64,000 nucleotides of DNA from a virus (IMGVR_UViG_3300021400_000686:1-64000), one strand, 5' to 3'; shown: positions 28,410-52,194, counted from the first letter of the stretch. Notes: generated by a model from the letters alone, not told the origin. A program made the numbers and translations.

Positions 28410-28785
28410 TCCCCCACTTATCGATTACGGATCGGAAGTCTTCAACATCATGCGGAATAATACAGAACCGAGCCATACCATCAGCGCTCGGATTATATCC
28501 AACGTGGCACAGCTCGTGATACATCAGCTTTTCAAGCCTGTCCGCATCCAACGCCTCGGTGTTTCCAGTGTAAAACGTGATAATGAAGTCCGCCTCTATA
28601 AAAAGCTTCAACTTCTCTTTGACAAGCTCGGTATCTGCAAACACCTCAAGCCCGTTTGACTTTTTTGCTTTGTCGCAATACTGGTAAACAATTCTGCAAT
28701 CAGGATCATCGAGGGCGTTCAGTTCTTTGTATTTTTGAATAACATTTTTGCCAAGCGCATCGAGGTCATCCTCTTGCCAGTACAT
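28327..28785 (-). CDS. Putative phage metallopeptidase
   Basis: HELCH (HExxH) and PHDVEDF motifs. Confidence 0.75.
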   Translation of the reverse strand: MYWQEDDLDALGKNVIQKYKELNALDDPDCRIVYQYCDKAKKSNGLEVFADTELVKEKLKLFIEADFIITFYTGNTEALDADRLEKLMYHELCHVGYNPSADGMARFCIIPHDVEDFRSVIDKWGIDWVKGDDKTGRKRTTKTRRSKVQKQT

Positions 28786-30019
28786 CTGCTTCGTCCCTCC
28801 GACCGTTTGGTGCTATCTCGCGCGGAACTAAGATTTCAGCTTCTCCGTTTGTGAAGACGCTACCGTATGTATCAATCGGCCTGATTTCCGCTTCATAAAT
28901 CACACCGTTCGGATCAGGCGCATGGCCCATGCCGACTTCGCTCCCAGTAAAGGAACCCGCAACGTCTCTGTCAAACGTGTAAGACGAGAACACCGACGCC
29001 TTTTCGTATTCTTTCCCTGTCCCTCCACGATACATCTTGATCGGGGTAACAAGAAACTCGTCAAAGGATAATGGCTCCTTTTTCTTTGCCTCGCAGTCGT
29101 ACTTGTAATTTCCGTACATGATGTTCAGAGCCGCGTTGTGAACCTCGGGGCTTTGAATCATCTGTTTCGTCAGATTGTCCTTATATTCATGGTTGTACGC
29201 TCTGAACCATCCGTCTATGGTTGATTGACTCAAGTTGTCATAAAGGATTTCATCCGCTTCGTCCCGACTGATTTCGTGGAGGTTTTTTGTCACCTTTCCG
29301 AGTTTGAATTTGTAGAATTCCGAATCGATTGCGTCGCTTCCTCCTTCTTCATAAAGGGGCATCAGCTTCCCAACATTCTTGGTTGTAAAGTCGTCAACGC
29401 TATCACCGTCCTCATATTCATAGTCGTCGCGGTTCGGTCTCAATTTCTCGGTCAGATCAGACTTGACTTGTTTTTTCTGATGAACGTATTTGTCGTCCTT
29501 TACCTCAAAGTCGCCTTCTATGTCAGAGCGCCCGTGAGCTTTAAGAATCTGCTTTGCGGTCGCCACCTTTTTTTCGCCGTTTGAGGCTTCGTACTCAAAT
29601 TGATCATCTCCGATCTTTTTATATGCTCTGTCATGAGATACCGCCGTATACCCTGTCGGCATCTCTTCAAGAGACTTGCGAACAGCATCTTTAATTTCGA
29701 ATGAGCTTTTTTCTTTCACCGCATCTTGATAAGCCTTTGTGTACTCGGAAGTGTCAACACTTTTTCCCGTGTCAATCCCCTTCCCCATCTTCTCGGCCTT
29801 CACGCTCTCAGCGGACTTTCCAGTCTTGTTCTCGTACGCTTCCCATGCTTCCCGTGGAGTCATGCCTTCGGTGTTGATCCCCTCAGAATTGCAAAGGCCA
29901 TACGGAAGCTGTGTGCTATATGCACTATGTTTTTTTGCCTTCGGCTTTTCTTCATCGTCAGCGTCCAGTCGTAACAACCATTTAAGCCGTATTTTCTCTA
30001 CAACCTTTGCTTGATTCAT
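28766..30019 (-). CDS. Leader-bearing virion-cargo candidate with a C-terminal ART-like domain
   Basis: IRLKWLLRLDAD leader, LPYG module; MYRG..SSYT..EAEILV (R-S-E). Confidence 0.65.
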   Translation of the reverse strand: MNQAKVVEKIRLKWLLRLDADDEEKPKAKKHSAYSTQLPYGLCNSEGINTEGMTPREAWEAYENKTGKSAESVKAEKMGKGIDTGKSVDTSEYTKAYQDAVKEKSSFEIKDAVRKSLEEMPTGYTAVSHDRAYKKIGDDQFEYEASNGEKKVATAKQILKAHGRSDIEGDFEVKDDKYVHQKKQVKSDLTEKLRPNRDDYEYEDGDSVDDFTTKNVGKLMPLYEEGGSDAIDSEFYKFKLGKVTKNLHEISRDEADEILYDNLSQSTIDGWFRAYNHEYKDNLTKQMIQSPEVHNAALNIMYGNYKYDCEAKKKEPLSFDEFLVTPIKMYRGGTGKEYEKASVFSSYTFDRDVAGSFTGSEVGMGHAPDPNGVIYEAEIRPIDTYGSVFTNGEAEILVPREIAPNGRRDEADVLARG

Positions 30020-30031
30020 ATTGACCTCAAT

Positions 30032-30784
30032 TCAAGTATTTCTTGATCTATCCCCGTCCTCCTTTGACGCGTTCGAACTTTCCACGCTTTTCGCAAGTTG
30101 CCCCTCACTGCTGTCTATCCACGCAACGTCGTCAACCCCAACTGTTTGTGAATAAACCTTGCCTCCGCCAGAATAGTCTTGCGCCATCCTTTTTGACGGG
30201 GAAACAAACCCACCCTCTTCAATAGGCTTGCTACTGTAAATCGTTATCTTTCCGCTCTTAAGCGCGTTGTCGGCGTCTTCTTTAGTGAAGTCAGGATAGA
30301 TAAACTCGTCCTCGCCAAACGCTTCTTTCGCCGTTTTGATGTCTTCAGGCGATCTGATCCCTGTATGATAATCATCCATCATTGGATTGGACTTTTGGAT
30401 AATCTCAAACTGCTTTCTTTTCGCATCCGTGACAGGATATTGACTCGCTTTTGGCTTTGTTGTTTCAGGGGCGCTTTTCTTTGTTTGCTTGGTCTCCCTC
30501 GGCTTTTCTGGCTCGCCCTTTAACTCTTTGAGCTTTTGCAAAATCTCCGCTCTCCTTTTTCCGCCACTGCCAAATCTGCTTGTCCGTTTCAACTCCGACT
30601 CAAGGGCACTTATTGTCTCCGCATTGCCAAACGCTTTCATCTGTCCACCGATTGGGTTCTTCTCCTCGTCAAGTGGAATATGGTTCCCGTTGACAGTAAC
30701 CCAACTATCAGGCTCTTCATCAAATCGTTGTTGCCACTTATGGCGAATATGATCTATAGTATTTGTGCGCTTCATCTGTACCAA
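30032..30784 (-). CDS. Leader-bearing cargo candidate with a degenerate ART-like domain
   Basis: IRHKWQQRFDEE leader, WVTVNGNHIPLD; ITIYSS..GFVSPS..AQDY..EG. Confidence 0.55.
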   Translation of the reverse strand: MVQMKRTNTIDHIRHKWQQRFDEEPDSWVTVNGNHIPLDEEKNPIGGQMKAFGNAETISALESELKRTSRFGSGGKRRAEILQKLKELKGEPEKPRETKQTKKSAPETTKPKASQYPVTDAKRKQFEIIQKSNPMMDDYHTGIRSPEDIKTAKEAFGEDEFIYPDFTKEDADNALKSGKITIYSSKPIEEGGFVSPSKRMAQDYSGGGKVYSQTVGVDDVAWIDSSEGQLAKSVESSNASKEDGDRSRNT

Positions 30785-30786
30785 CC

Positions 30787-31380
30787 TTATTCAAAATCAA
30801 TTCGCCAGTCGTCCTCGTCCTCATCTGTTCCGTAGCGTGTCATCTTTTCCCCAGCAAGTGTTTCGTTATAGTTCTCGATTTTTACCCCTGTGCCAGAGTA
30901 TGCGGACGTTGAGCCGTTGTCGTAAATGACGCCCTTAATGTTGGACAACTTCATTTTGCTTGTATCGTCGCCCTCGCTAAACACCTCAATATCACCGTTT
31001 CTATAAAGAATTGCGATAGAACTATCCGACCACATATCACCATTGTTTTTGACGTCTTGTAATATCACGCTCTTCATCTCGTCCATCGAATAGCGTTCAA
31101 GAATCTGCCCGTTTGCCATTTCAATGGATTTCCCCCTCGACGGACACTTGCCTTTCATCAAATCAGCGACCTTCTTGTTTTCTTTGTCGAAATGTTGTCT
31201 AAGTTTAGGGCTTATCTTGCTCTCTTTGATTTTATCTGCAACTTTCCCTGTTGCGTGACCGTCCTCATCAAGGGGAATGTGCGTACCGTTAATTGTTATC
31301 CAGTCTTCTGGCTCCTCGTCGAAGCGGGCGTGCCACTTACTCCTGATTGTTTCGATCTGTTTATTTGTTTTCATGCCCAC
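30787..31380 (-). CDS. Leader-bearing cargo candidate, unknown C-terminal domain
   Basis: IRSKWHARFDEE leader, WITINGTHIPLD. Confidence 0.65.
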   Translation of the reverse strand: MGMKTNKQIETIRSKWHARFDEEPEDWITINGTHIPLDEDGHATGKVADKIKESKISPKLRQHFDKENKKVADLMKGKCPSRGKSIEMANGQILERYSMDEMKSVILQDVKNNGDMWSDSSIAILYRNGDIEVFSEGDDTSKMKLSNIKGVIYDNGSTSAYSGTGVKIENYNETLAGEKMTRYGTDEDEDDWRIDFE

Positions 31381-31455
31381 CTCAACGCATCAAAAAAGGG
31401 AGTCGGATTTCTCCGCTCCCTCTTGATAATGATATTCTAAAACTCAATCGTGGCT

Positions 31456-31746
31456 TTACTTCTGTGAAAGCTCCGCAATCTTCTGCTTGATCTTCACAAC
31501 GCCCGGATTGTTACCCTGATACTTCAGAAGGTATTTCCAGTCCTCTAAATCAAGCTTGCTTTCGACTTTTTCCACTTCCTCGGCGAAAGTATCGTCCGCG
31601 TTCGCTTCATCGAAGAATGTGGAATAATAGAAATTCAACGCAATCCTCTCCTTGCATGCTTCCGACGGCGCTTTATCGTAAATATCCTTCCAATAGGAAT
31701 TTTCGCTAAACAGCTCTCGCGCCGCGTCAACCTTACTCTTATCCAT
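31456..31746 (-). CDS. Small protein, candidate antidote/partner of 31759-32520
   Basis: RBS AGGAGG; immediately downstream; followed by a terminator at 31392-31420. Confidence 0.6.
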   Translation of the reverse strand: MDKSKVDAARELFSENSYWKDIYDKAPSEACKERIALNFYYSTFFDEANADDTFAEEVEKVESKLDLEDWKYLLKYQGNNPGVVKIKQKIAELSQK

Positions 31747-31758
31747 TGCGATCCTCCT

Positions 31759-32520
31759 TTAATCGTGCCCCTCAATGGGGTTAAGCTCAGGCTTGTAGAA
31801 TGGGTTAATCAAAAGCATCCCCGCTTTATTGTCCCAAATCGAATGTTGGTTATGCTGTACCGCAAACTCAAGCGCATTATCCACATCGTCCGCGACAAAG
31901 CTCAACTCTGGGTTTCCAAAGTGTCCTACGTACGGGCCACCAGTTGGGTATGAATCGGGATCGTCTGAAAGTTCTCTCTTTGCTACCGCGCACATCTGTC
32001 CGTAAGTTTCTGGATCGTATCCCCCAAACGGATCATCAGCTTTGTTGTTCTGATGGAATGTTACGCTAAAGCCACGAGAAATATTGGCTTCCTTGTACGG
32101 TGGCACCATCGTGAACGTTCCGTCCTTTTTGTCTGGCGCTATCTTATCAAAGTTCTGTACCGTTGATAATGCCTTCTCGTATTTCTTACCCTCAGCCTTC
32201 AAGTCTACGCCGTGTTCTTTTGCGTACCTCTCAAGGAACTTCTTTGTTCCTTTCGGCCCCTCAGCGACGATCTTCTTGGATGTTTTTAGCCAACGCGTCG
32301 CATGATCCACTCCGTCGTTTGTCCTGAATGTATCTCGGTTTTCCACAAGCCAGTTGTGACCACCGCCCGGTTGTGAACCGCCTTGATGCCCGGGAATCCC
32401 TTTATGTCCCCAGTTGCCAGATGTCTTAGTCCCTTTATCGCTTCTCTCAGTCGGCAACAGCATACCGTCCGTCCGAAGCATCCACTTCTTCCGTATCGCC
32501 TCTACTCTCCTCATAAGCAC
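31759..32520 (-). CDS. Leader-bearing cargo candidate with a GNWGH module; C-terminus possibly SAM-lyase-like
   Basis: IRKKWMLRTDG leader; SGNWGHKGIPGHQGGS; ALEFAVQHNQHSIWD. Confidence 0.55.
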   Translation of the reverse strand: MLMRRVEAIRKKWMLRTDGMLLPTERSDKGTKTSGNWGHKGIPGHQGGSQPGGGHNWLVENRDTFRTNDGVDHATRWLKTSKKIVAEGPKGTKKFLERYAKEHGVDLKAEGKKYEKALSTVQNFDKIAPDKKDGTFTMVPPYKEANISRGFSVTFHQNNKADDPFGGYDPETYGQMCAVAKRELSDDPDSYPTGGPYVGHFGNPELSFVADDVDNALEFAVQHNQHSIWDNKAGMLLINPFYKPELNPIEGHD

Positions 32521-32589
32521 CCTCTCTGGCCTCGAAAAAGCCCCGTTTTGGGCGTTTACGATATGAGGCCGATCATTTTATTGTATAAC

Positions 32590-33057
32590 TCACTTAAGCG
32601 CAACAGCGACGCATTTTTCAGCGTCGCCGTCAATCCCCTTAAGATAATTATAGGCAACGACATATTTGTCATATCGTGCCAAGTCTCTGTCTGTGACCCT
32701 CGGTAAACGACTCAAATCCATATTATGTTTTAAGTCCGCTTCCTTCACGTGTCGTGCAATCTCATTTACAGACAACCGTTTGATCTGATCCATGTAAGGC
32801 ATCCCCTTCGGGTGTGTAATGTAAGACACCGCTTCCCCTATCTTTTCGCCAAACATCGCGGTGATCATCCCAATCGTTGTATCCGTATCTTCGACTGTAT
32901 CATGTAAGTATGCTACTATTTTCTCCTCATCCGTCGAACACATCCGCGCAACCGCGTCTGGGTGCATCCAGTACGGAGTCCCTCCCTTGTCCACCTGTCC
33001 AAAGTGGACTCGTTTCGAAAATTCCTTCGCAAACTCAACATCAGACATCCGCGCCAC
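32590..33057 (-). CDS. HD-domain (Mesh1/SAH-like) alarmone hydrolase
   Basis: HFGQVDKGGTPYWMHP..YLHDTVED..VKEADLKHN. Confidence 0.85.
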   Translation of the reverse strand: MARMSDVEFAKEFSKRVHFGQVDKGGTPYWMHPDAVARMCSTDEEKIVAYLHDTVEDTDTTIGMITAMFGEKIGEAVSYITHPKGMPYMDQIKRLSVNEIARHVKEADLKHNMDLSRLPRVTDRDLARYDKYVVAYNYLKGIDGDAEKCVAVALK

Positions 33058-33058
33058 C

Positions 33059-33268
33059 TCACGAGAGCCGATTAACGTATTCCTCGGCCTCCTCGTCGCT
33101 AATTCCGTAACTGTGAATTAAACCGTTGAAGGCGTCAAACGCATCAGAAGAGCTTTCCCATCCTTTACGCGGAATGAACTCCTCATAAGAACCGTCTTCC
33201 GTTTTACGGTACAAATCCATGATCGTCCCGTCGTTCCATTTCGTTGCTTCGTAAATTACTTTTCCCAT
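33059..33268 (-). CDS. Small candidate immunity protein for the RelA/SpoT-domain effector
   Basis: 69 aa, own promoter, lies between synthetase and hydrolase. Confidence 0.6.
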   Translation of the reverse strand: MGKVIYEATKWNDGTIMDLYRKTEDGSYEEFIPRKGWESSSDAFDAFNGLIHSYGISDEEAEEYVNRLS

Positions 33269-33296
33269 TTAGCAACCTCCTTTCCCCCACGGCTAT

Positions 33297-33325
33297 ATTA
33301 TATCACATATTGGGCAATATGTCAA
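33297..33325 (-). promoter_or_regulatory. Consensus sigma70 promoter containing ACATATTG-N2-CAATATGT
   Basis: TTGACA-17-TATAAT; palindrome at 33305-33322. Confidence 0.85.
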
Positions 33326-34515
33326 GGATTATTCCGTCTTTTGAACGGCTTTAATTTCTCGATCCCCGGCGGATTTTTGTAGTTCTCTCTCCACCGCTCA
33401 ATCTGAACCTTGTTCAACTCTTCGTTCTTGTCACGCATTTCCTGAGTCCACTCGTCCTTCGGCGTCTTTTCATAATCCCTCTGGATTTCATATTCCTTAT
33501 GGTTAAGGTCTTTGACCGCTTGGCTCTGTGGTGAGTGTACTTGCAGTTCGAAAACGCGTCCACTTGGGGCCTTTACAGAAAGGTGCACCGCACGATAAAT
33601 CGCGTCCTCGTTTACCTTGCCGTCCTTTCCAAGGAACTTGTTGTCAAGCTCGATTACCTCGTAGCCTTGATCCGAGAGGTTTTTCTGCAACTTGTTTACA
33701 CACCCAACGATATCTTTATTATCGCACATCGCAGTGTATCTTACAAGGTCTCCGAACTTTTCTGCAACATCGTCAACCGTTGCTTCTGGGTTCCCCGTTT
33801 CCGCGCGGAACTTTTCGAGCTTTCTAAGAGCTTTGTCCTCAATATGGCTTGCACCCTTGGAAGCGTTTTCCGTACCGTCAAGGTACATCCCCGCGTTTCC
33901 GACGGAGTCAAACAAGTCTTTCGTGATCTTCTTTTCGTCCGCGACAGCGCCCTCGAACACCTTCTTCATCCTTTCGGAGCCTTTAATTTCGCTATCGACC
34001 TTTGACGCGAGCCCGGGGATGCATGCGAACGTCTCGCCCTTTTCATTCTTTTGATAAACGATGTCCTCGTCCTTCAGGTTCGCAACGATATTCTCCCATG
34101 TGCCGGGCTTGATCCATCCTTTTTCCTCGTCTTCAAGCGCCGTTTTCTCTGCGATTTCAAGCGCTTTGGAGTATTTTGCCCCGTTCTTCAGCTTCGGGAA
34201 ACTTGTCCCTTTGCTTGTGGTAGTCTTGTCCGAGAGCCTGTTTGTGTCAAGTTCACTCTTTTTCGGCTCTTTTCCTTCGTTTTTAACCGACTCATTCACT
34301 TTTTTACGAAGCTCTTGGGTCGGTTTCACGCTCTTGCTTTCCACCATTTTTTTAGCAACGTACGGATTTGCCTTGTCAAGGACGCCGTTTTCGTTAAAAT
34401 GGATATGATCGCCTTCTTCTGTCGTGCGCCACTTGCCCTTTTCTTGCGCGTCCATCCGACTTTGATAATCCGCACGAATCCGCCTTAAGATTTTATCTGT
34501 ATATTTCTTGTTCAT
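33322..34515 (-). CDS. Leader-bearing RelA/SpoT-family (small alarmone synthetase-like) effector
   Basis: IRADYQSRMDA leader; GDLVRYT..YRAVHL..FELQVH motifs. Confidence 0.8.
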   Translation of the reverse strand: MNKKYTDKILRRIRADYQSRMDAQEKGKWRTTEEGDHIHFNENGVLDKANPYVAKKMVESKSVKPTQELRKKVNESVKNEGKEPKKSELDTNRLSDKTTTSKGTSFPKLKNGAKYSKALEIAEKTALEDEEKGWIKPGTWENIVANLKDEDIVYQKNEKGETFACIPGLASKVDSEIKGSERMKKVFEGAVADEKKITKDLFDSVGNAGMYLDGTENASKGASHIEDKALRKLEKFRAETGNPEATVDDVAEKFGDLVRYTAMCDNKDIVGCVNKLQKNLSDQGYEVIELDNKFLGKDGKVNEDAIYRAVHLSVKAPSGRVFELQVHSPQSQAVKDLNHKEYEIQRDYEKTPKDEWTQEMRDKNEELNKVQIERWRENYKNPPGIEKLKPFKRRNNP

Positions 34516-36608: not shown

Positions 36609-36619
36609 ACATTATCTCC

Positions 36620-38695: not shown

Positions 38696-38733
38696 CGTTC
38701 AACCCCAATAAAAAACGGTGCATCTCTGCACCG

Positions 38734-39072
38734 TTAGCCTAAATATATTCCTTTTTGCTGTTCTTTCGACATCGCAATCAGCTTCCGCTGTTGTCGCCTT
38801 ATGTCCCCAATGTCTACGTTTTCACGTGCCTCTAAAAGGTCGTAGATTTCCTCCTCGTTCGGATTGTCGGCCTCAACAATCTTTACCGCTTTTTCTACTG
38901 CCCCCTGATCCAGTTGATCCGAGGAATAAATTGGTTCGTATTTCGCAAGGAATAACCACATCCACCGATAGGTTACAAGTTCTCTCCGTGTGTCTACAAT
39001 GGCGTATAACCCGTCCTCAACCTCACAAATCACGGTATCGCCTGAGCCACCTACAACTGATCGTATCTTCAT
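38734..39072 (-). CDS. Small hypothetical protein (candidate antidote)
   Basis: RBS; followed by a terminator at 38710-38735. Confidence 0.55.
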   Translation of the reverse strand: MKIRSVVGGSGDTVICEVEDGLYAIVDTRRELVTYRWMWLFLAKYEPIYSSDQLDQGAVEKAVKIVEADNPNEEEIYDLLEARENVDIGDIRRQQRKLIAMSKEQQKGIYLG

Positions 39073-39081
39073 GCCTTGCCC

Positions 39082-39312
39082 TCACCAAAAAATCTTTTCA
39101 TCAGCCGTATCCTTCGGCATGTCATCTAAAACATCGTAAAAGTTCGGAATGTCGTCTGGAGCATCGCCGTCAATAAGCCTTTGGCAAACTTCAATCTTCT
39201 CGTCAAGCATCTTCCCGTTTTCGTCGTTCATGAACCGCTCAACAAGCTCGTTCCCTGTTTGCCATATAAGCTCGAACAGCTTTGTCTCTTTTTCCATTCG
39301 CTTAATGTCCAT
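39082..39312 (-). CDS. Small acidic hypothetical protein (candidate antidote)
   Basis: Abuts the stop of the zincin gene. Confidence 0.55.
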   Translation of the reverse strand: MDIKRMEKETKLFELIWQTGNELVERFMNDENGKMLDEKIEVCQRLIDGDAPDDIPNFYDVLDDMPKDTADEKIFW

Positions 39313-39313
39313 A

Positions 39314-40561: not shown

Positions 40562-40601
40562 GCGCCGCACCTCCATTTAGTGTACGGCGCATGTGTCGCC
40601 G

Positions 40602-41405
40602 TTATCTCAATTTTTCGAACTCTTCCACAACTTCCAATAAGTCATCGGGCAGATACCATCTCAGCTTGTCCTTGATATTGTCTGGTACACCGAAATACGC
40701 TTCCGCAATCGCACCCGCAATCGCACCCAATGTGTCGCTGTCCCCTCCGATTGAAACACAGTTACGAATTACATCTTCGTAGCTCGTTCCTTCGTAAAAG
40801 CACTGCAACGCTTCAGGCATCGAAACCATACAAGTTTCATCGCCGTGCCCATTGATAATGTTGCGATACCATCCTACGCTTCCATGTGGGACGTAGTATT
40901 TATCCATCTCGGCCTTGATAGCATCTTTGCTTGATCCGTTCAGCGCCATGTATACCGCAACCGCCGTCGCCTCAGCGCCTTTAATGCCTTCAGGATGATT
41001 ATGAGTTACTTCAGTCACCTTGCGAGATAGCTCTTTAACCTCGTCAAGATTTTTTGCGAAATACGCTACAGGACTTACTCTCATAGCCGATCCGTTGCCG
41101 AAACTGTTGTAAGGCATCGGATTGTTTGAGAACATCCACTGGAAAAACATTCCGCCGTACCCACAGTTTGGATGCTTGCGCCCAATTCTGTGCATAGTCT
41201 CGATGGTTTTCCTTGATAGATCGCTGTAATCTCCATGGCAATCCATCAGCGCCTTTGCTACGGCGCACGTCATCACCGTGTCGTCCGTGTACTCGCATTC
41301 CGCCGCAAACAGTTCAAACTTCTTTGTTTTGGTGTTATTGAATTCCCACCGAGAACCAATAATATCGCCTAAAATAGCCCCTACCATTAACATCACCCCT
41401 TTCAT
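40602..41405 (-). CDS. ADP-ribosylglycohydrolase (DraG/ARH family)
   Basis: GAILGDIIGS, YTDDT, SFGNGSAMRVSP, GGDSDTLGAIAG. Confidence 0.9.
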   Translation of the reverse strand: MKGVMLMVGAILGDIIGSRWEFNNTKTKKFELFAAECEYTDDTVMTCAVAKALMDCHGDYSDLSRKTIETMHRIGRKHPNCGYGGMFFQWMFSNNPMPYNSFGNGSAMRVSPVAYFAKNLDEVKELSRKVTEVTHNHPEGIKGAEATAVAVYMALNGSSKDAIKAEMDKYYVPHGSVGWYRNIINGHGDETCMVSMPEALQCFYEGTSYEDVIRNCVSIGGDSDTLGAIAGAIAEAYFGVPDNIKDKLRWYLPDDLLEVVEEFEKLR

Positions 41406-41421
41406 ATCATCTTACAGCGAT

Positions 41422-41450
41422 ATTTTATCACATATTGGATAATATGTCAA
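41422..41450 (-). promoter_or_regulatory. Sigma70 promoter for the ARH gene containing the ACATATTG palindrome
   Basis: TTGACA-17-TAAAAT; ACATATTGGATAATATGT at 41430-41447. Confidence 0.8.
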
Positions 41451-41465
41451 TAGTAGGGAGTTATT

Positions 41466-41687
41466 TTATTCTTCCTCGTAATAATCGCACTCTTCTTCGC
41501 CACGAACGACCATCTCGGGCTTGTGCTCTGGATAAGGATACATTTGGCAACTCGCTTTTCTGTAGTCGTTCGACCAAATGTCTCCGTTGTCCCTCAGCAC
41601 ACACGTTTTGCACTGTTCGCAAATAACCAATTTGCCGTTATCAGTAGCGCTGTCATCTTCATACCATCTTTTCGATTTCTCTGCCAT
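41466..41687 (-). CDS. Small Cys-rich protein, candidate ART immunity
   Basis: CEQCKTC..C..C; own promoter TTGCAA-17-TATAAT at 41714-41742. Confidence 0.6.
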   Translation of the reverse strand: MAEKSKRWYEDDSATDNGKLVICEQCKTCVLRDNGDIWSNDYRKASCQMYPYPEHKPEMVVRGEEECDYYEEE

Positions 41688-41742
41688 GCGAACCTCCTTT
41701 CGGCATTTTGATCATTATATCATAGCGAACGGTTCTTTGCAA

Positions 41743-44700
41743 TCACTTTACGGGATACTGCCCAATTACCTCAAGATCGATGTACACGGTGCCGTAATCA
41801 GACTTTGCTTTTGTCACGCGAAAACGCGTCCCTTGCTGAAGCAAAACTTCAAGCTCGTAACCCGCGGTCGAATGATGATAATCGCCATCCCATAGATAAT
41901 TTTCAGACCAATGCTTAGAAAAATCGGCATCGCCAAATTCAGAGAATGGTTCCATGTACAACGCCTTTGTTCCTCTTGGAACATAGATGTTATAGATCAC
42001 TTTCTTTTGCATTCCCGTGCCCTTGGCGGCACCCGTGCTTGAGAAGCCGTATTCGATCGGCTCACGACCAACAAGCTGTTGTAAGTCTTCCGTACTACCA
42101 GTCCTCAGAAGTTCTTTATCACATCCAAGGAAGGCAGACGCTCCTCCAAAGCCAACGCCTCGCTGAACCCACATATCAAAGTCGTACGAGCTTCTTTCAA
42201 TCATTTCTGTTAAGTCGCGTACTTTCTTTGGTAGAGGCCCTGAAGATTTTCCGTAGCCAATATCCCGAAGCGGATCATTGTATGAGTCATAGCTACCCGT
42301 CGTGTAGTTGTACGCCGCTTTCTTTTGTGCAATGCTCGACTCTTTCCAAACGGAACTGCATTTGTCAAACAAAGCGTTATCTGCATCTTTCGGCTCTTGC
42401 GCCCACATCGCATTGTCTTTTCGCTTTTGTGTATAAGCGCTTGCTTCAAAGGCGTTTTGCAAAGGCCCACCATTCAACGCCGTGATTTTGCTGTTGTTTT
42501 CGTTTATCTTAGCGTTGATATCGGCCAACTCATTCTCGATACGTTTCTTCTCTTCGAAGCCCTTTTTGAGCTTTTGCATATTGTTTAGCTTTGCCTCGAT
42601 AACGCTACGCGCATTATCGTCCGACGCGTTCTTCGCCGTTTCAAGAGCCTGTTGCAATTGGCCCTCAAGAAAACTTATACTATCATCGTCGAAACTTCCT
42701 AACGGTATCTCGAGGTCTTCCGTTGGGTGGACTTTGTACATCTTCCCTTTCGCCACGTCGATCTTTTGCTTTAACTTGTTAGCGTCTTTGGAAAGCTTTT
42801 TGTTTTCTGCATTCAGCTCTTTTATTTTCGCGTTATTCTCTTTTTTCTTGACCGCCTCGGCCATCCCGTCGACGTCGGCTTGTAGTTCCTTGATCTTATC
42901 GCGTTGCTTCATCACGGCGTCTTTCCACGATAAGGAGCGCTTCATATTATCTCTTGACGTCCAGTTCGGCTCGCCTTTATCATTGAACGCGTACCCGTAC
43001 TTCTCCGAAAGCTCTTTTTGATTTTGCGCTATCGCGCTATCCACTTCCTTAAGTGCGTCGTTTATAGCGTCTCGCTCCGAAGAAGGCAAAAGCCCAACTT
43101 CGTACGCCTTATCTGGAGTCATTCCGTTAAGTTTGAACCCATCTAACTTCTTCTGCTTTTCCTCAAGCAAGTCGTATAGGTCTGTCACTTTTTGCGCCCT
43201 GTCGAAGAAATCATCTACCGTCTTGACCTTATCACCAGCGCCACCTTTTTCTATGAATTTTTCAAAATCTTCATATGTCGGTATCGCCGTGCCGTTTGCG
43301 TCTGTAAGCTGTTGCTTTTTCAGCGCGTCAATTTCGGCTTGCGCACTATTGATCTTCTTTTGAAGTTGCTTGATTGTACCTTTGTATTCCTTTTTGGGCG
43401 GTTCTTTGGATGCTTTTAACGTCTCCGCGTCCGCAACGATCAGCTCTTTGTTGTTTATAATATTCTTGATCTTCTCTTTGTCTATCGTGTTGCCTGTTTC
43501 GTCTTGAACGGAACCGTTATAATTGACAGCGTATCCATACCCATTTTCTTCAATCACGTCTGCCGCTTCCATCATCTTTTTGAACACGGGATTGTAGTCT
43601 TCCTTGTCCTCGTCGGAAAGCTCCCAAGCGCCACCTACTCCATGGTCGGACAGAAACTTTTCCTCCGCTTCACAAGCGTTCAAAAAGTTGTTGTATGCTT
43701 CATACTTATCAAGAACCTCTTTGAAATTCTCGCTCTTAATTTCCTCGTCGCTGAACCCAAACGACTTAAGGTTTGCCTCCGCCTCTTCCTTGTTTTTCCC
43801 CTTAACATGAGGAATGCTCGGTGCCGTCTGTTCAGTCCCAACCGTGTCGCCTAAACCAGAAAGTTTTTTCTTGTTCTCGGCCTTCTGATCCTTTGCTCCC
43901 TTTAGTAGGTCGCCGTAATATCCTACCATGTCCTTCTTTTGAAGGATGTCTTGAACCTTGTCCTTGTCATATCCGTGAACGGTGCCATTGCTTGGTGCAT
44001 AATCATAAATCCCAAATTCATGAAGCTTGCTACCCGCTTTACTCACGTCCTCGTACATGTCGTAAAACTCAAGTTGCTTTTCTTTTGATAACTTCGAAAA
44101 CCAACTTGCGTCATTCGGATCAATGTTGTTTTCTTCTTTCCAATCTTCTGCGTCCTGATATGCATCGTAGAAATTACCAAGAGCCTCGTACTTCTTGATC
44201 ACATTGTCAAAGTCATCCGAATTGATCTCCTCATCGGTGAAGCCAAAATCTTTAAGCGTACTCGTAAAAGTGTCTATATCCGCATCGTTGTCATTTATGG
44301 CCTTCTGCAATTCCTCAACGGCTTGCGTCGAATCGACGGGCGCTTCACCATAAGGAATATCGTCTGGATCATTCGATTGCTCTGGAGTATTCCCACCAAC
44401 ATTCTCCGTACCAAGCGCCTTCTGATTGTCAATCGACTTCTGAACAGCTTCCTTCTCTTCCGCCGTGAAATACTCGCCTGTAAGCGGGTTCACGAACCCA
44501 TCACCGCTTTTTTGGAATCCGCCCTCGCCCTCGAACTCATCTATGCTACCGCCAAGCGCGTACTCTAAATCGCCCTTACTAAGACTCGAAATGTCGGTGT
44601 CGCTCGGCTCTTCGCCCAACCCAAGCGGATCGTCCATTGGCTCGATCTCCAAGTCCTTCGGAATTTCGGATTCTGGCTCTTGATAATCGTACCCCTTGAA

Positions 44701-45510
44701 ATATTTGTTTATTTCATTCCGTTGCTCGTAAAGGTCGTCAAGTTGCTCCATTTCCTCGTCGGTAAACAATTCGCCCGATTCATCGAATATCTTTTGAATA
44801 GCATTGTTTACGTTCTCAAGTTCTGAAGCAAGCTCCGTTTGGCTCATGTCGGAATAGTTGGGTTTGTCCTCTATCCCGAGTTTGTCCATCAGCTCTTTTT
44901 CTTTTTTACCTAATTCGTAATAGTCTTCCCAGTCGGTCTCGATCTTGTTGTTGTCGTAGTCGGACAACTTTTCCTGTACCTTCTTCAGTTCCGCCTCAAG
45001 TGCCTCTTTAGTTTCTACACCCTCGCTCTCGTTTTGCTTGAGATTATCAAGGGCGGATGTAATCTTGTACTGTTCCTCTTGGAGTTCCCTTGCCTCTTTA
45101 ATATAATTGTCCGACTTTTCTTTGTCGTAGGCATGTGACCACGCGTTGTCCATTGCCTCATCTACTTTTTTCTTTATTTCTTCGAGCTTGTCGTTTAGCT
45201 CGCTCTCCGTCATGCCAGAATAGGCATCGCCTTCTGGGTTTTCAGCGTCTATTACATCGCCCTCGCCCTTCTTTTGCTTCTCAGCATACATTTCATCAGC
45301 GGTTTTGCCCGTTTCGTTCTCGTATGCCTCCCAAGCCTCAGATGGCGTCATTCCCGTTGTATCGATCCCAAGGTCTTTGCAAAGGCCGTAAGGCAAACGC
45401 GTGCCCCATCCAGTAGCCTTCTTCGGTTCCTCGTGTTCTTCCCCTTCTTCGTCGGCGTCCATGCGAGCGCAATATTTAAGTCTAATTGTGTAGAGTATAT
45501 TGTCTCTCAT
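41743..45510 (-). CDS. Large leader-bearing protein with a C-terminal VIP2/Alt-type ADP-ribosyltransferase
   Basis: IRLKYCARMDAD leader, LPYG module; WVQRG..GFSSTG..ELEVLLQQGTRF (R-S-ExE). Confidence 0.85.
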   Translation of the reverse strand: MRDNILYTIRLKYCARMDADEEGEEHEEPKKATGWGTRLPYGLCKDLGIDTTGMTPSEAWEAYENETGKTADEMYAEKQKKGEGDVIDAENPEGDAYSGMTESELNDKLEEIKKKVDEAMDNAWSHAYDKEKSDNYIKEARELQEEQYKITSALDNLKQNESEGVETKEALEAELKKVQEKLSDYDNNKIETDWEDYYELGKKEKELMDKLGIEDKPNYSDMSQTELASELENVNNAIQKIFDESGELFTDEEMEQLDDLYEQRNEINKYFKGYDYQEPESEIPKDLEIEPMDDPLGLGEEPSDTDISSLSKGDLEYALGGSIDEFEGEGGFQKSGDGFVNPLTGEYFTAEEKEAVQKSIDNQKALGTENVGGNTPEQSNDPDDIPYGEAPVDSTQAVEELQKAINDNDADIDTFTSTLKDFGFTDEEINSDDFDNVIKKYEALGNFYDAYQDAEDWKEENNIDPNDASWFSKLSKEKQLEFYDMYEDVSKAGSKLHEFGIYDYAPSNGTVHGYDKDKVQDILQKKDMVGYYGDLLKGAKDQKAENKKKLSGLGDTVGTEQTAPSIPHVKGKNKEEAEANLKSFGFSDEEIKSENFKEVLDKYEAYNNFLNACEAEEKFLSDHGVGGAWELSDEDKEDYNPVFKKMMEAADVIEENGYGYAVNYNGSVQDETGNTIDKEKIKNIINNKELIVADAETLKASKEPPKKEYKGTIKQLQKKINSAQAEIDALKKQQLTDANGTAIPTYEDFEKFIEKGGAGDKVKTVDDFFDRAQKVTDLYDLLEEKQKKLDGFKLNGMTPDKAYEVGLLPSSERDAINDALKEVDSAIAQNQKELSEKYGYAFNDKGEPNWTSRDNMKRSLSWKDAVMKQRDKIKELQADVDGMAEAVKKKENNAKIKELNAENKKLSKDANKLKQKIDVAKGKMYKVHPTEDLEIPLGSFDDDSISFLEGQLQQALETAKNASDDNARSVIEAKLNNMQKLKKGFEEKKRIENELADINAKINENNSKITALNGGPLQNAFEASAYTQKRKDNAMWAQEPKDADNALFDKCSSVWKESSIAQKKAAYNYTTGSYDSYNDPLRDIGYGKSSGPLPKKVRDLTEMIERSSYDFDMWVQRGVGFGGASAFLGCDKELLRTGSTEDLQQLVGREPIEYGFSSTGAAKGTGMQKKVIYNIYVPRGTKALYMEPFSEFGDADFSKHWSENYLWDGDYHHSTAGYELEVLLQQGTRFRVTKAKSDYGTVYIDLEVIGQYPVK

Positions 45511-45521
45511 GGCTTATCCCC

Positions 45522-46055
45522 TTACCTATCTTTTGGCCGTCTCTTCAACTCGCTATTGAAAATAGCCTTTCTCTCGATTGAAAGCGCAAGATTTTCACCG
45601 TCCCGATCTGGGTTTTTCTTGAACGCTTTAATTTTCTTCTCGCAGTCATCAATCTGCTTTTTTATCGTATCCACATCCGCCTTTGACGCTTCCTTCGTCC
45701 ATGCCTCGCGCATCTTCACCAAGCGTTTTCTAAACTTCTCGGCTTCTGCATCTTCCTTGCGTCTCTTTGCAGATGTATACTCTTGCGCATACATTCTATG
45801 AAGTTCGTCCTCGTCGATGTCCTTGATTTTGACATCACTGCCTACGCCCTTCTTTTCCTTCTGCTTGTAGAACTCCGTTGGTGACTCTTTCGTCGCTTTT
45901 TGTACGCGATCCCAAACTTCTCTCGGTGTCAGTCCCTCAGTATCTATGCCTAAATCTTTCGCGATGCCGTAAGGAAGGCTCACGTTCCACCCATCAAGGC
46001 GCTTTTTCTGTTTATATCTAATCGTGTTTGTTGTTTTGTTGATATTCATACTCAC
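45522..46055 (-). CDS. Short leader-bearing protein (leader + LPYG module + coiled coil)
   Basis: IRYKQKKRLDG..LPYGIAKDLGIDTEGLTPREVW. Confidence 0.7.
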   Translation of the reverse strand: MSMNINKTTNTIRYKQKKRLDGWNVSLPYGIAKDLGIDTEGLTPREVWDRVQKATKESPTEFYKQKEKKGVGSDVKIKDIDEDELHRMYAQEYTSAKRRKEDAEAEKFRKRLVKMREAWTKEASKADVDTIKKQIDDCEKKIKAFKKNPDRDGENLALSIERKAIFNSELKRRPKDR

Positions 46056-46083
46056 CTCGATGCATATTGCGTTTTTTCACGAA

Positions 46084-46156
46084 AGCCACCGACAGGATTT
46101 GAACCCGCAACCTACTGATTACAAATCAGTTGCTCTGCCAATTGAGCTAAGATGGC
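46084..46156 (-). tRNA. tRNA-Thr(TGT)
   Basis: Full cloverleaf; anticodon arm ACTGA-TTTGTAA-TCAGT. Confidence 0.9.
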
Positions 46157-46251
46157 TAAATCCACTCTATTGTCAGCGCCGAGTGACTAAGCGCCGTGCT
46201 TTCCCACATTTCTTTCGTCAGGGCCGTGTGCCTGTTACGGCCCCACCGAAT

Positions 46252-46311
46252 ACGACAAGTCGGGGCTTGCACCCGTTAAATCCCTTCGCCTTCGGCTTGA
46301 CGGTCTTGCCG
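46252..46311 (-). ncRNA. tRNA-like acceptor/T-arm minihelix with a non-tRNA middle
   Basis: CGGCAAG/CTTGTCG stem; CGGG-TGCAAGC-CCCG T-like arm. Confidence 0.4.
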
Positions 46312-46446
46312 ATAAAAATACGTGCCCTGTTCCGCATTGTTAAGAGGCTTGGCGCGTTCCGTTCGTATGCGCTCTATTTGTATTCCGCCGAGCGCTTAAG
46401 CGGTGATCTAAGAAGGAACCGTGGAAGAAGTCAATTATACACAACA

Positions 46447-47847
46447 TTAAAAGAAATTCGCCAAGTTGAACTGTGCTTTCAGCTCAAGCTCGGCAAATCC
46501 GTTCGCAGAAGCGTCGACCATATCCTTGAGCTTCATATCTGGGAACCCCTCAAGTTGTAATAGGTAGGGCTCATTCCAGTCGGCGGAAACAATATCAAAA
46601 TTACCAGCTTGCCACTGCGCCGCCATCGGTGTTGCCCTCGCCTCTTTACTGCCTGTCTCTGGAACCGCCGTAACGTCAAACCCTGAAAGGAATTTGATGT
46701 ACATTTCAGCTTGATCCTTACCCGCTTGCCCGGGGTCTTGAGGAATTCTAACGCGAACTTGTTGCTTGTATTTCGCGTTGTCGGATTGGGCGGTCAGTTT
46801 GATAATGTTCCGAACATCGGAAGCCGATAGCGCACGGTTGATCACATCGGCGACTACATATCGCCCGTTCTTTCTTTTGCCAATCAAAACACCCGCCGTA
46901 TACGCGGGGTCATTGTTCTCGTCTTTTTCTGTCGCCGCCAAGTCCCAACACCGCACCCACTGAATAACATCGTCGGGGACAAACGGAAGAATGTTGCCAA
47001 GCTGTTCGCGTTTGAAATACAACCCAGCCGACGGCTTGATCTTCCAGTTACCCATCAGAAGGCGTTCGCGCTCGACCGTTGGTAGCGCCTTTAGGTTCGC
47101 AAGGTACTGTGGGTTCGCCTTCAGCAAGGCTTGATTATCGTAAATAGTTGCCGAAATAAATGTAACAGAGCGCGGTTCCGCTCTCTCTTCTGGCGTCGTA
47201 AGGTTGAACTGTTTACATAATTCTTCTCTCGTGTCAGCCCAAAAGATTTCATTGTCTCTTCGGATCATCCACCGAATTTTCCCACTCCGCTCTGGAATCG
47301 GATATCCTGTCTCTTGGTCGATCCACCATGAAATGAATTTTGCTACCCACGAATTTGCATCTGGGTTACATGTGCCGATCACGTACGGTTTAACGCCACA
47401 CATCGAGCGATTACGGGAAAGCATATAAAAAAAGACATATTCGCTAAAATGGCAAAGCTCGTCATACTCAATTCCACAGATTTGTGACCCGTGATAGTTC
47501 TGCACCTCTTCATCGCGCTCTATATGTCTGAATGATACCCTTGATAATTGTTCTCCGTTTTTATCGTTAAATATCCACGCGCTTTCCCCTCGCCTGATTT
47601 CGGCCCCTCGTATGCCAGAATACATATCACGCGCATTGTCCCACAATCCGCCCTCGTTATAGATTTGGTTCGCGTTTTTTCGAAAGATTACACATCCGAA
47701 GCCCTTAGTGTTTTTGTATCTAAGGGGATAAAGCAACTCCGCATGTGTCTTCCCAGACCCCGCCGCTCCACCGTAGATAATAATTGACGCGGGGTTTGAC
47801 AGGAACTTTTCCTGAGCTCCCCGTTGAGGCCGTAGTATCTTCGCCAC
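46447..47847 (-). CDS. terL: Terminase large subunit
   Basis: YGGAAGSGKT Walker A, IEYDEL Walker B, RCWDLAAT and KDMVDA nuclease motifs. Confidence 0.92.
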   Translation of the reverse strand: MAKILRPQRGAQEKFLSNPASIIIYGGAAGSGKTHAELLYPLRYKNTKGFGCVIFRKNANQIYNEGGLWDNARDMYSGIRGAEIRRGESAWIFNDKNGEQLSRVSFRHIERDEEVQNYHGSQICGIEYDELCHFSEYVFFYMLSRNRSMCGVKPYVIGTCNPDANSWVAKFISWWIDQETGYPIPERSGKIRWMIRRDNEIFWADTREELCKQFNLTTPEERAEPRSVTFISATIYDNQALLKANPQYLANLKALPTVERERLLMGNWKIKPSAGLYFKREQLGNILPFVPDDVIQWVRCWDLAATEKDENNDPAYTAGVLIGKRKNGRYVVADVINRALSASDVRNIIKLTAQSDNAKYKQQVRVRIPQDPGQAGKDQAEMYIKFLSGFDVTAVPETGSKEARATPMAAQWQAGNFDIVSADWNEPYLLQLEGFPDMKLKDMVDASANGFAELELKAQFNLANFF

Positions 47848-48345
47848 TTAATCACCCCCTGTGGCGTCTTCTTCCCCTTTCTCTGGGTCTTCCTCTTCTT
47901 TTTCGATTTCTGGCAAATAAATAACGACCCCACCGTCATCCTCATCCTGAGAATTCACTGTAAGGTCGCCCATATTCTTCTTCATCGCGTCAATACGCGC
48001 CTGTGACTCTTTTGCTTTCCGATCGTCTTCGCTCGCCTTGAAGAAATAATCGATCAACAGCTCCATCGCCCGTTGATTTCCGCCAAGGGCCATCTGGAAC
48101 AACTTTGTAGCCACCGCATTTGCGTTCACTTGCTCATCCTCGGTATACCCCGCGTCCTTGACAAGTTCTTTTGCTCTTCCAACAGCGGGCATACTCATGA
48201 GCTCATTCATCGCTTTGCGAATGTCGGCTTTTCTTCTTCTCGCCTCTCCAGAAGCAATTCCGCCTTTTCGGCAAATCTCGCTTCTCTCGGCTTTGCTAAC
48301 TTCCCCAAGCGACCGAAGATTTTTCTCGCGTACGTTTTTTGCCAC
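47848..48345 (-). CDS. Terminase small subunit-like
   Basis: Directly upstream of terL; RKGGIASGEARRRK motif. Confidence 0.65.
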   Translation of the reverse strand: MAKNVREKNLRSLGEVSKAERSEICRKGGIASGEARRRKADIRKAMNELMSMPAVGRAKELVKDAGYTEDEQVNANAVATKLFQMALGGNQRAMELLIDYFFKASEDDRKAKESQARIDAMKKNMGDLTVNSQDEDDGGVVIYLPEIEKEEEDPEKGEEDATGGD

Positions 48346-48535
48346 GTTTCGCCCTCCTCAAATCATCTTCGGTTAAATTATCGTCTATTTATTTTAAACG
48401 CCTGTAAAGGCCGTTTCTCAACGTTTAAGAGCCACCGTAAGTGTGGCGGCCCCCAACATTCAGCTTGTTCAACTTTGGATATTGCATTCAATCCCCTTTT
48501 AGAGAACCGCCACGAGAAAGGCCGTTGGCCCCTCT

Positions 48536-48757
48536 TTACAGAAAGTCCATGTCGTCGATCTCGTCCGCGCCAAGGCTAATCATTTCTTCCCCGTCTTTTA
48601 TAACCAGTCTTGAATATCCGTCTTCCTCGTCGTCCCCACTTGAATAGATAAATGCGACGCCCTCAAGCTCGTCACCGTCTTTTGTTTTGATCGACACCCT
48701 GTGTTTTCCGCTTACCGCCTCATACATCATATCCTCGATATCGCCAATGTTCAGCAT
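48536..48757 (-). CDS. Candidate immunity protein for Ntox50
   Basis: 73-aa acidic ORF directly after the toxin. Confidence 0.6.
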   Translation of the reverse strand: MLNIGDIEDMMYEAVSGKHRVSIKTKDGDELEGVAFIYSSGDDEEDGYSRLVIKDGEEMISLGADEIDDMDFL

Positions 48758-48769
48758 TTCGACCTCCCT

Positions 48770-49495
48770 TTACGGGATTACTGGAACTATATGCGTTCCG
48801 TCCCGTGATAAAATTATTTTCCCCCACTTTGTCGGAACATGTGTATTGGAATCGCCCTTCTTGACCGCCTCACCAATCACTTCCGTATGTTCGAAAAGGA
48901 CTCTAAGATTCCCACTTTCGTAAAGAACCGTTCCCTCTGTAATGTACTTATCCACAAGCTTCTGTACATCCTCTTCTGGAATTGTAAGATAACTCGGATA
49001 CTTCTTTTCCGCAACCCTTTTTTGATATTCTTTTGTGCCGGGGATATGTTCCCTCTGTTTATCCTTTTTCACGGCCTGTGAATAAGTACCTTCTTTAAGC
49101 CTTTCCCCAACGATTTTCTTAAGTTGGTCTTGGCTCATTGCCCTGTACTTATCTCTTTCCGCCTTCGCTTGTTGTTTGGCGCTCTGGCCTTTATTTTGGC
49201 CGTTTTCCGACGTTTTCTTCTCCTCGTCGGTACTTTTATCGCCGTTCTCGTTATCGCGAGGATTTTCAGCCTTTTTGGTTTTTGCCTCTTCCTCGTTCTT
49301 CTCGATCTCCTTGCCGATCTCTCCCCCAAGGCTTCCGTCGTCTTCAAGTGGGACTGGCTGATGGTTTATTGTAATAAACTGCTTCTTAGGATCGTGATTA
49401 ACTATATGAATTTTTTTCTTCCGCTTCTCATCGCGAGCGTCCATCCTTGCAAGATATTTAGTTTTGATTTCTCTGAGAAGCTCGTAAACGTTCAT
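48770..49495 (-). CDS. Leader-bearing polymorphic toxin, Ntox50-like RNase
   Basis: IKTKYLARMDA leader; KQREHIPG..SYLT..IG..T..KI..G.HIVP. Confidence 0.7.
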   Translation of the reverse strand: MNVYELLREIKTKYLARMDARDEKRKKKIHIVNHDPKKQFITINHQPVPLEDDGSLGGEIGKEIEKNEEEAKTKKAENPRDNENGDKSTDEEKKTSENGQNKGQSAKQQAKAERDKYRAMSQDQLKKIVGERLKEGTYSQAVKKDKQREHIPGTKEYQKRVAEKKYPSYLTIPEEDVQKLVDKYITEGTVLYESGNLRVLFEHTEVIGEAVKKGDSNTHVPTKWGKIILSRDGTHIVPVIP

Positions 49496-49508
49496 TTCTT
49501 TCGCCCCT

Positions 49509-49544
49509 AAAAAAATTCAGGGGACATCCGTCCGAACGTCCCCT
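49509..49544 (-). terminator. Intrinsic terminator ending the early operon
   Basis: GGGGAC/GTCCCC hairpin + TGAATTTTTT. Confidence 0.65.
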
Positions 49545-49623
49545 ACACCAATGGCTATTATATATATAGCACGTCATAAAGGTGAATTTCAATGAATTTT
49601 AGTGAACGCGAAGCGACTTTTTT

Positions 49624-49923
49624 TCACTTTTCCATATATAAAATTTGTCCGTCTATCGCATACCCCAAATCAATGTCCACCGCGTCATCATCAAAATCGG
49701 CATCTTTTTCCGCTCCGAGAATTCCGTAAATCTCATCCTCATATCCACTATCGATCAAGCGATGAAGCGTATCCTCTAAGCATCCACCAAGATCAATATA
49801 GGCAATGTCCCCATCTGGTACGATCACATAGTGCTCGAAATACTGTGATGTAACGCCGAACCTACAGACATGTTCGCCTTCCCCACACAACTCCTTTATG
49901 ATCTTATACCCTCTGTCGCTCAT
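49624..49923 (-). CDS. hypothetical protein
   Basis: RBS GGGGG; follows the Cas7-like gene. Confidence 0.55.
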   Translation of the reverse strand: MSDRGYKIIKELCGEGEHVCRFGVTSQYFEHYVIVPDGDIAYIDLGGCLEDTLHRLIDSGYEDEIYGILGAEKDADFDDDAVDIDLGYAIDGQILYMEK

Positions 49924-49938
49924 CGTTTCCCCCCTTCG

Positions 49939-52184: not shown

Positions 52185-52194
52185 CCGTACCTCC

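Follow-up and report, generated by a model that had tools for sequence, protein, structure and literature searches.

Ten separately encoded proteins in the head gene block of an uncultured phage share an arginine-rich N-terminal leader that may direct them into the capsid

How might a phage load many separate enzymes into its head without fusing them to a structural protein? The question is raised by IMGVR_UViG_3300021400_000686:1-64000 (here called the window), which is the first 64 kb of one 88,332-bp viral contig and carries all of its genes on the minus strand. The head and packaging module of the window spans 23 to 50 kb, and within it ten open reading frames (ORFs) encode proteins that have in common a 10-residue N-terminal motif, I-R/K-x-K/R/D-W/Y/L/Q-x-x-R-x-D. 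The original prediction for this locus held that the common leader loads these proteins, as effectors, into the head. We refer to them as putative cargo proteins 1 to 10 (Table 1). Judging from sequence and from the analogy with phage T4, we favor with moderate confidence the reading that the leader is a load tag resembling the T4 capsid targeting sequence (CTS), possibly also cut, which replaces covalent fusion to MuF or portal.

We examined the leader by scanning all six-frame ORFs of at least 40 amino acids (aa) over the full 88,332 bp with the pattern I-[RK]-x-[KRD]-[WYLQFM]-x-x-R-x-D. The pattern matched 10 of 703 ORFs, exactly the ten that the original prediction had named, and the motif started at residue 9 to 16 throughout. 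All ten are minus-strand ORFs that lie inside the head and packaging block, between 28.7 and 49.5 kb, and together they amount to 4,298 aa or 12.9 kb, less than the ∼15 kb that they had been said to fill. A 22-position hidden Markov model (HMM) of the leader gave the ten ORFs scores of 27 to 38 bits and all others less than 5 bits. Nine of the ten leaders also have a hydrophobic residue at position −3, which makes the pattern amphipathic; this residue, the Ile, the aromatic residue or Leu at +4, and the residue before the Asp form one stripe. Every leader ends in R-h-D-[S/G/A], where h is hydrophobic, and is followed by an acidic spacer. In an AlphaFold2 model built from a 40-row alignment, residues 2 to 17 were predicted to form one helix and residues 18 to 34 to be disordered; the next element of that model, module A, is described below. 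A Pfam scan of the N-terminal 50 to 85 residues at E ≤ 10 returned no relevant match for the leader or for any of the three modules.

Leaders had a mean nucleotide identity of 48%, with the invariant Ile encoded by ATA, ATT, or ATC and the invariant Arg by both CGN and AGR codons. The leader is thus conserved at the level of protein and not of DNA. A DNA-level repeat or recombination site was ruled out because the codons at the invariant residues vary freely. The genes are clustered, and the N termini of two neighbors, cargo 2 and 3 (ORFs starting at 30032 and 30787), are 50% identical, as might be expected if the common N terminus were a functionless relic of tandem duplication and C-terminal domain swapping. 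We consider this origin very improbable, as four positions are invariant or nearly so over ten paralogs whose codons are free to differ, the same leader type is retained on different cargo in relatives with portals 60 to 68% identical to that of the window, and the sequence beyond the modules is unrelated among the ten proteins. The conservation pattern in itself already disfavors such a relic.

Following the leader and acidic spacer, each of the ten proteins carries one of three short modules, which the original prediction overlooked. Module A (L-P-Y-G-L ... G-I-D-T-x-G-M-T-P-x-E-A-W type) is found in five proteins, module B (W-I-T-I-N-G-x-H-I type) in four, two of them with a degenerate copy, and module C (G-N-W-G-H-x-G-x-P-G-x-x-G-G-S type, with the core G-R-P-G) in one. 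AlphaFold2 modeled module A as a helix at residues 35 to 47, a loop, and a helix at residues 56 to 67, with a pLDDT of 88 to 90. A profile of leader plus module A, used in an exhaustive search, detected 319 clusters at E ≤ 1e-3, with the matches nearly always located within residues 1 to 100 of proteins that are 50 to 1886 aa long. Where Pfam recognizes the C termini of this set, they are toxins: ADP-ribosyltransferase (ART), Zeta, DUF3626, and Gln deamidase. The profile also picked up secreted-looking proteins (P0031, P0116, P0128, and P0149) with many tandem copies of G-I-D/N-T-x-G-L/M-T/S resembling the module A loop, which are probably an unrelated repeat family.

In scans of IMG/VR with DNA patterns, 73 ORFs contained module C and at least 96 contained module B. 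Both modules occurred in four settings, namely, behind short N-terminal peptides that are common to the paralogs of one contig and differ between phage groups, directly behind the C terminus of MuF, directly behind portal-Nudix, and repeated within polyvalent ORFs, where module C was present four times in one ORF. With an iterated leader profile, the leader was detected before 83 of 284 module copies at N termini, compared with only 5 of 67 internal copies. By these profile and pattern counts, the junction module has a wider distribution than the leader. Different short amphipathic N-terminal peptides precede modules B or C in L048, L075, L051, L069, L035, L038, L059, L060, L074, L078, and many other contigs, and this suggests that leaders differing between phage groups are the general rule. 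A literature search on module C motif strings recovered no paper describing this module, and the leader and all three modules are absent from Pfam, from cultured phages, and from the papers searched.

Turning to the C-terminal parts, we found at most one recognizable effector domain in each of the ten proteins. Ntox50 (PF15542) was confirmed in cargo 10 by Pfam (1.4e-14; 55.1 bits against a cut-off of 22.2), and the C-terminal 518 aa of cargo 8, scanned alone, matched ADPrib_exo_Tox (PF03496) at 2.3e-18 (66.7 bits against a cut-off of 23.4) as well as the PHROG family 'Bxa ADP-ribosyl transferase' at 1e-28. The ART and Ntox50 identities originally proposed for the ORFs starting at 41743 and 48770 were therefore borne out, while those of RelA/SpoT, DUF3626-like, and zincin reached the status of leads only. 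The RelA/SpoT-like lead concerns cargo 5, which matched a XopAD C terminus at 4e-15 and, weakly, the small alarmone synthetase 8vx3 (E 0.01). Cargo 6 matched, at a TM score of 0.60, clusters that carry MuF (with Phage_Mu_F in every member and DUF3626 in 12% of one cluster), and its C terminus is a lead for a DUF3626-like domain, which is MuF-fused in other phages. The zincin lead for cargo 7 comes from its H-E-x-x-H and a later E-L-F-A motif; a significant family match was absent, and the C terminus matched the C-terminal part of the 'head morphogenesis' family PHROG 4728. The C terminus of cargo 1 is a weak ART/DRAT-like lead, and PDB sequence searches with cargo 2, 4, and 7 gave no significant match. 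A Pfam scan detected Phage_Mu_F in none of the ten proteins, and their PHROG matches, including 'head morphogenesis' and 'minor head protein', covered C-terminal, non-MuF parts only. The MuF protein of the window is encoded separately and, as originally noted, carries no toxin domain.

The effector domains of the cargo are of kinds that are fused to MuF in other phages, and the tagged genes are closely spaced with the portal gene and with one another, with gaps of −4 to 12 nucleotides (nt). Such proteins might also work outside the virion, as late toxins freed at lysis for interbacterial competition or as enzymes acting in the infected cell, with the N terminus serving oligomerization, export, or regulation. 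MuF toxins are classed as polymorphic toxins used in interbacterial competition, with a delivery route that is not established (Jamet et al., PMC5576092), and the pairing here of an ART with a glycohydrolase and of a synthetase-like protein with an HD hydrolase resembles polymorphic toxin-immunity pairs. Against this, signal peptides and a secretion-system context are absent, the genes lie strictly within the head genes, and portal and MuF, both internal head proteins, carry fusions of these modules. We regard a role outside the virion as improbable.

The same block encodes a DUF2213 protein. This protein matched PHROG 530 'head maturation protease' at 7e-79, and its N-terminal domain is homologous to gp24 of Pseudomonas phage Pa193 (E 1e-12). 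In a structural search with a model of the domain (pLDDT 65), the top three matches were all to 5JBL, the T4 protease gp21 (E 4e-4 to 9e-4), and the next match was at 0.08; gp21 was the only clear structural match of this moderate-confidence model. His82, Ser132, and His162 are invariant in the protease domain, and the middle spacer of the protein is hyper-acidic, with a net charge of −57. The sequence R-h-D-S is conserved at residues 16 to 19 in 8 of 8 homologues, the tetrapeptide type recurs, with R, K, or H as first residue, at residues 467 to 470, also in 8 of 8, all eight having an R/K/H-L-D-G-K motif near the C terminus, and R-F-D-S is present in 6 of 8 capsid proteins. These similarities suggest that the tetrapeptide at the leader end may be a cleavage or docking motif common to leaders, scaffold, and capsid protein. 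A profile of the scaffold C terminus did not match the leaders, and a complex prediction for leader residues 1 to 34 with DUF2213 residues 1 to 205 plus 420 to 535 (score 0.02; mark 0.32) counts neither way. A literature search on DUF2213/DUF2184 cleavage returned no useful data, and the paper on Faecalibacterium phage FP_Brigit contains no virion proteomics. For Pa193 gp24, a helix-turn-helix fragment remains attached within the capsid vertices, and the authors of that study suspect that it is cleaved (PMC11456595).

FP_Brigit is the nearest cultured relative of the window (portal plus Nudix 49% identical over 97% of the length), and the Arg-rich leader is that of one clade of FP_Brigit relatives. 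The I-R-x-K-W form is retained in near relatives; in distant ones the sequence is Y-R-x-R-R-x-x-R-L-D, frequently as two or three tandem copies, and others have a different N-terminal peptide. Whole-record scans of two near-complete relatives, of 100 and 98.6 kb, showed 14 and nine ORFs with a module, respectively, of which about ten and five carry the Arg-rich leader. Each of these relatives (G001 and G003) also encodes a polyvalent protein with four to five copies of module B, the two proteins having 1767 and 1823 aa, and all of these ORFs lie within the head block. In agreement with the co-occurrence of leader and DUF2213 heads that had been predicted, a DUF2213 homologue was present in 7 of 7 leader-bearing records with enough sequence; we also inspected the context of six representatives, three of which were on contigs too short to inform. 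In this clade, the portal is fused to Nudix. In the nearest uncultured relative, whose portal is 68% identical, the portal ORF continues via module B into an extra domain. The leader appears mainly where a MuF or portal-Nudix anchor is absent, while the junction modules follow such anchors directly in relatives. We note that two relatives have portal ORFs of 1390 to 1454 aa (L010:9986-14350 and G003 52093-56265) in which the Nudix fusion is followed by module B and a further domain.

Several observations weigh against leader-directed loading. FP_Brigit, L009, and several contigs share the head genes and lack tagged cargo, so these heads do not need it. Cultured phages also lacked the tag: tblastn against 50,697 records, with the leader and module A, B, or C as query, yielded nothing meaningful. 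Prophage copies were likewise missing, in that a pattern scan of 185,579 species genomes gave no confirmed relative. The tetrapeptide is short, its first DUF2213 copy sits in a predicted beta-strand of the protease fold, and the capsid protein of the window itself has His in place of Arg. Presence of the leader goes together with an acidic scaffold spacer, the groups separating fully (7 versus 5; exact p 0.0025), which amounts to about one independent contrast because the leader-bearing phages form one clade. Many module B proteins of other phages begin with the module and have no leader, so that loading could be signaled by the module and not by the leader. Finally, a few fused polyvalent proteins have leader-like stretches in their interior, for which an N-terminal address alone would have no need, and a role in processing is at least as plausible as pure targeting.

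The last two points lead to an alternative in which the junction module is the true loading or handling signal and the leader is a mere propeptide, used for protease recognition or toxin inhibition until the head protease or the metallopeptidase removes it. In its favor, the modules have a much wider distribution than the leader and often form the extreme N terminus with no leader before them, and the internal leader-like stretches lie at junctions of fused proteins, where cuts would free the units. Moreover, the tetrapeptide type of the leader end is the one conserved at two sites of the protease-scaffold, and genes for a gp21-fold protease and a polyvalent-type metallopeptidase adjoin the array. 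The modules are retained, though, after MuF and portal domains that are already in the head, where a pure loading role for them is not needed, and the metallopeptidase is also present in relatives without tagged cargo. Overall, we judge the propeptide explanation unlikely.

We also considered that leader and modules bind nucleic acid, so that the enzymes would be tethered to the packaged genome or its end, or would act on DNA or RNA in the cell. The leader is rich in Arg and occurs in tandem in distant relatives, module C has an AT-hook-like core, and module A, which on this view would be SAP/HeH-like, is modeled as helix, extended loop, and helix. According to the title of a study cited in PMC5576092, SPP1 gp7, of the MuF family, is DNA-binding and portal-targeted to the procapsid. 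A structural search with the model of leader plus module A did place SAP and Rho N-terminal domains among its matches, at Z 2.1 to 2.5, but every match had Z < 4 and none was distinguishable from chance. The strict spacing of Ile, Arg, Arg, and Asp and the hydrophobic stripe would fit docking to a protein better than non-specific charge binding. In tailed-phage packaging, the portal does not admit folded proteins along with the DNA, and nucleic acid binding would still require a separate loading step. We give this explanation only a small chance.

Taken together, the confinement of the tagged genes to the head block, the MuF-type effectors, and the occurrence of the modules on MuF and portal speak for the proposal that the leader loads effectors into the head; the heads of the same type without such cargo and the internal leader-like stretches speak against it. 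On the load-tag reading that we favor, the ten genes would encode a polymorphic set of virion cargo proteins, effectors or toxins, each with a three-part N-terminal address: an Arg-rich amphipathic helix of ∼17 residues ending in R-h-D, an acidic disordered spacer, and module A, B, or C. Beyond this address, each protein would continue through a variable linker into an enzyme domain unrelated to those of the others. The junction modules would mark the start of a cargo unit whatever its anchor, be it MuF, portal, another polyvalent unit, or a short leader, and in this clade the leader would stand in for the covalent anchor. During synthesis of the head proteins, it would recruit separately encoded cargo to the procapsid, probably by docking to the protease-scaffold, with its hyper-acidic spacer in this clade, or else to portal or MuF. 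Clipping of the leader by the gp21-like head protease may follow, in the manner of the T4 CTS, and at infection the cargo would leave together with the DNA. Self-harm could be limited by the candidate antidote genes, which encode an ADP-ribosylglycohydrolase, an HD hydrolase, and small ORFs.

If this is correct, it would explain how many separate toxins or host-modifying enzymes are loaded into the heads of gut-type Firmicutes phages without structural fusion. MuF toxins, portal fusions, and polyvalent proteins would then be three forms of one modular system with common junction modules. With hundreds of clusters carrying the modules, a sequence rule for predicting injected proteins in viromes would follow, as would a candidate tag for loading foreign proteins into capsids; calling the tag engineerable is speculation. 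The loading principle is already known from the T4 precedent. A broader scheme, which we advance tentatively and on balance doubt, is a cargo code of uncultured tailed phages, in which a universal module opens the units and a group-specific, portable leader replaces fusion, in the present case docking on the acidic spacer and being clipped at R-h-D. Under this scheme, the tag would determine the choice of proteins that a phage injects.

Table 1. Features of the head and packaging block, with positions counted from the first nucleotide of the window
Feature	Position	Strand	Description
Major capsid protein, 353 aa	23062..24123	-	PHROG 264
DUF2213 protease-scaffold, 535 aa	24638..26245	-	gp21-like protease domain (predicted), acidic spacer, conserved C-terminal helices
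Stand-alone MuF head protein, 295 aa	27522..28409	-	Effector domain absent
Stand-alone polyvalent-type phage metallopeptidase, 152 aa	28327..28785	-	PF18894
Putative cargo 1, 417 aa	28766..30019	-	Leader 10-19, acidic spacer, module A; C terminus weak DRAT/ART-like lead
Putative cargo 2, 250 aa	30032..30784	-	Leader 13-22, module B; C terminus matches internal part of PHROG 13543 (1879 positions)
Putative cargo 3, 197 aa	30787..31380	-	Leader 12-21, module B; C terminus unassigned
Candidate antidote after cargo 4, 96-aa ORF	31456..31746	-	Without family; 12-nt gap
Putative cargo 4, 253 aa	31759..32520	-	Leader 9-18, module C (Gly-rich G-N-W-G-H type); C terminus unassigned
HD_4 hydrolase, candidate antidote of cargo 5	32590..33057	-	264-nt gap before it
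Putative cargo 5, 397 aa	33322..34515	-	Leader 13-22, degenerate module B; XopAD-like C terminus; 4-nt overlap with portal gene stop
Portal with C-terminal Nudix fusion, 698 aa	34512..36608	-	
Putative cargo 6, 691 aa	36620..38695	-	Leader 10-19, module A; DUF3626-like C terminus (lead)
Candidate antidote after cargo 7, 112-aa ORF	38734..39072	-	Without family; 241-nt gap
Putative cargo 7, 420 aa	39314..40576	-	Leader 16-25, module A; H-E-x-x-H at residue 220
ADP-ribosylglycohydrolase, candidate antidote of cargo 8	40602..41405	-	337-nt gap before it
Putative cargo 8, 1255 aa	41743..45510	-	Leader 9-18, module A, long acidic coiled-coil, C-terminal ADP-ribosyltransferase PF03496
Putative cargo 9, 177 aa	45522..46055	-	Leader 12-21 fused straight to module A, helical tail; no recognizable effector domain
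Large terminase	46447-47847	-	
Likely small terminase, 165 aa	47848-48345	-	Upstream of large terminase
Putative cargo 10, 241 aa	48770..49495	-	Leader 10-19 (Lys at position 2), degenerate module B, Ntox50
Long intergenic gaps	33058-33321, 39073-39313, 41406-41742, 46056-46446, 48346-48769, 49496-49938		

The remainder of the head and packaging module (Table 1) includes a decoration-like protein and several features that we record here. The otherwise tightly packed late block is broken at six places by intergenic gaps of 241 to 443 nt, three of which lie directly upstream of candidate antidote genes. The metallopeptidase ORF overlaps the end of cargo 1 by 20 nt and the called MuF start by 83 nt, the latter in a different frame; either the MuF start lies further downstream or the two are coupled, possibly as a frameshift fusion. 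The same metallopeptidase-MuF pair is present in relatives without tagged cargo (L009, L011, and L012), and in L007 only a weak, fragmentary MuF match is seen, at the end of the contig. Between MuF and the protease-scaffold, at 26640-27488, is a radical SAM gene (PF04055, 1.1e-14), an odd location for such an enzyme. A very acidic 131-aa ORF at 26269-26664 ends in a motif of the A-F-F-A-N-E-L-N-S-N-I-G type, which was seen again near the N terminus of a 1196-aa module A protein (L002:9761-13351) and near that of representative P0137; this ORF may, from its motif, be another detached piece of a polyvalent protein. The large terminase of the closest relative (L010:6762-8942) has 726 aa, compared with 466 aa in the window, and an insertion near the start of its ATPase region resembles an intein or Hint domain.

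Among known systems, phage T4 offers one of the closest comparisons. There, the CTS is carried by IPI to IPIII and Alt and is removed by the prohead protease gp21. The T4 internal proteins have only this sequence in common (PMC3012670). Like them, the ten proteins are unrelated, head-associated in their gene context, and joined by one short N-terminal peptide; the head module of the window encodes a protease that, on the basis of its model, has the gp21 fold, and one putative cargo (cargo 8) is, like Alt, an ADP-ribosyltransferase. The window leader differs from the CTS in being a longer Arg-rich helix, with an acidic spacer and then another conserved module behind it. The window genes, unlike those of T4, lie inside the head operon and are accompanied by candidate antidote genes; loading and cleavage are inferred here.

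MuF polymorphic toxins, known from temperate Firmicutes phages (Jamet et al. 2017, PMC5576092), likewise have variable toxin domains encoded in the packaging module beside antidote-like genes; in the window, the pairs of ART with ADP-ribosylglycohydrolase and of synthetase-like protein with HD_4 lie between terminase and protease-scaffold. Their effector domains match those of the window, and in other contigs the junction module follows MuF, whereas the ten proteins have no MuF domain, MuF being a separate protein, and would use a leader tag instead of fusion. Phage-type polyvalent proteins (Iyer, Burroughs, Anand, de Souza, and Aravind 2017, PMC5512222) resemble the window in their effector repertoire (ART, RelA/SpoT-like, and metallopeptidase) and in a neighborhood that brings portal, terminase, MuF, and a stand-alone PF18894 metallopeptidase into one block. 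In the window, by contrast, every unit has a gene and a leader of its own, in place of two or more effector domains joined in one polypeptide. As an analogy only, encapsulin cargo-loading peptides and the scaffold helix-turn-helix of P22 and Pa193 (PMC11456595) are also short peptides that dock inside an HK97-fold shell or scaffold, and in Pa193 the scaffold, gp24, is homologous to the DUF2213 protein of the window. Packaging has also been proposed for ARTs and Nudix domains that are encoded close to head genes or fused to them (PMC9503650; PMC5512222), a proposal that the load-tag reading would extend. Set beside these systems, the window provides a clear ten-gene example of putative cargo tagged by a leader.

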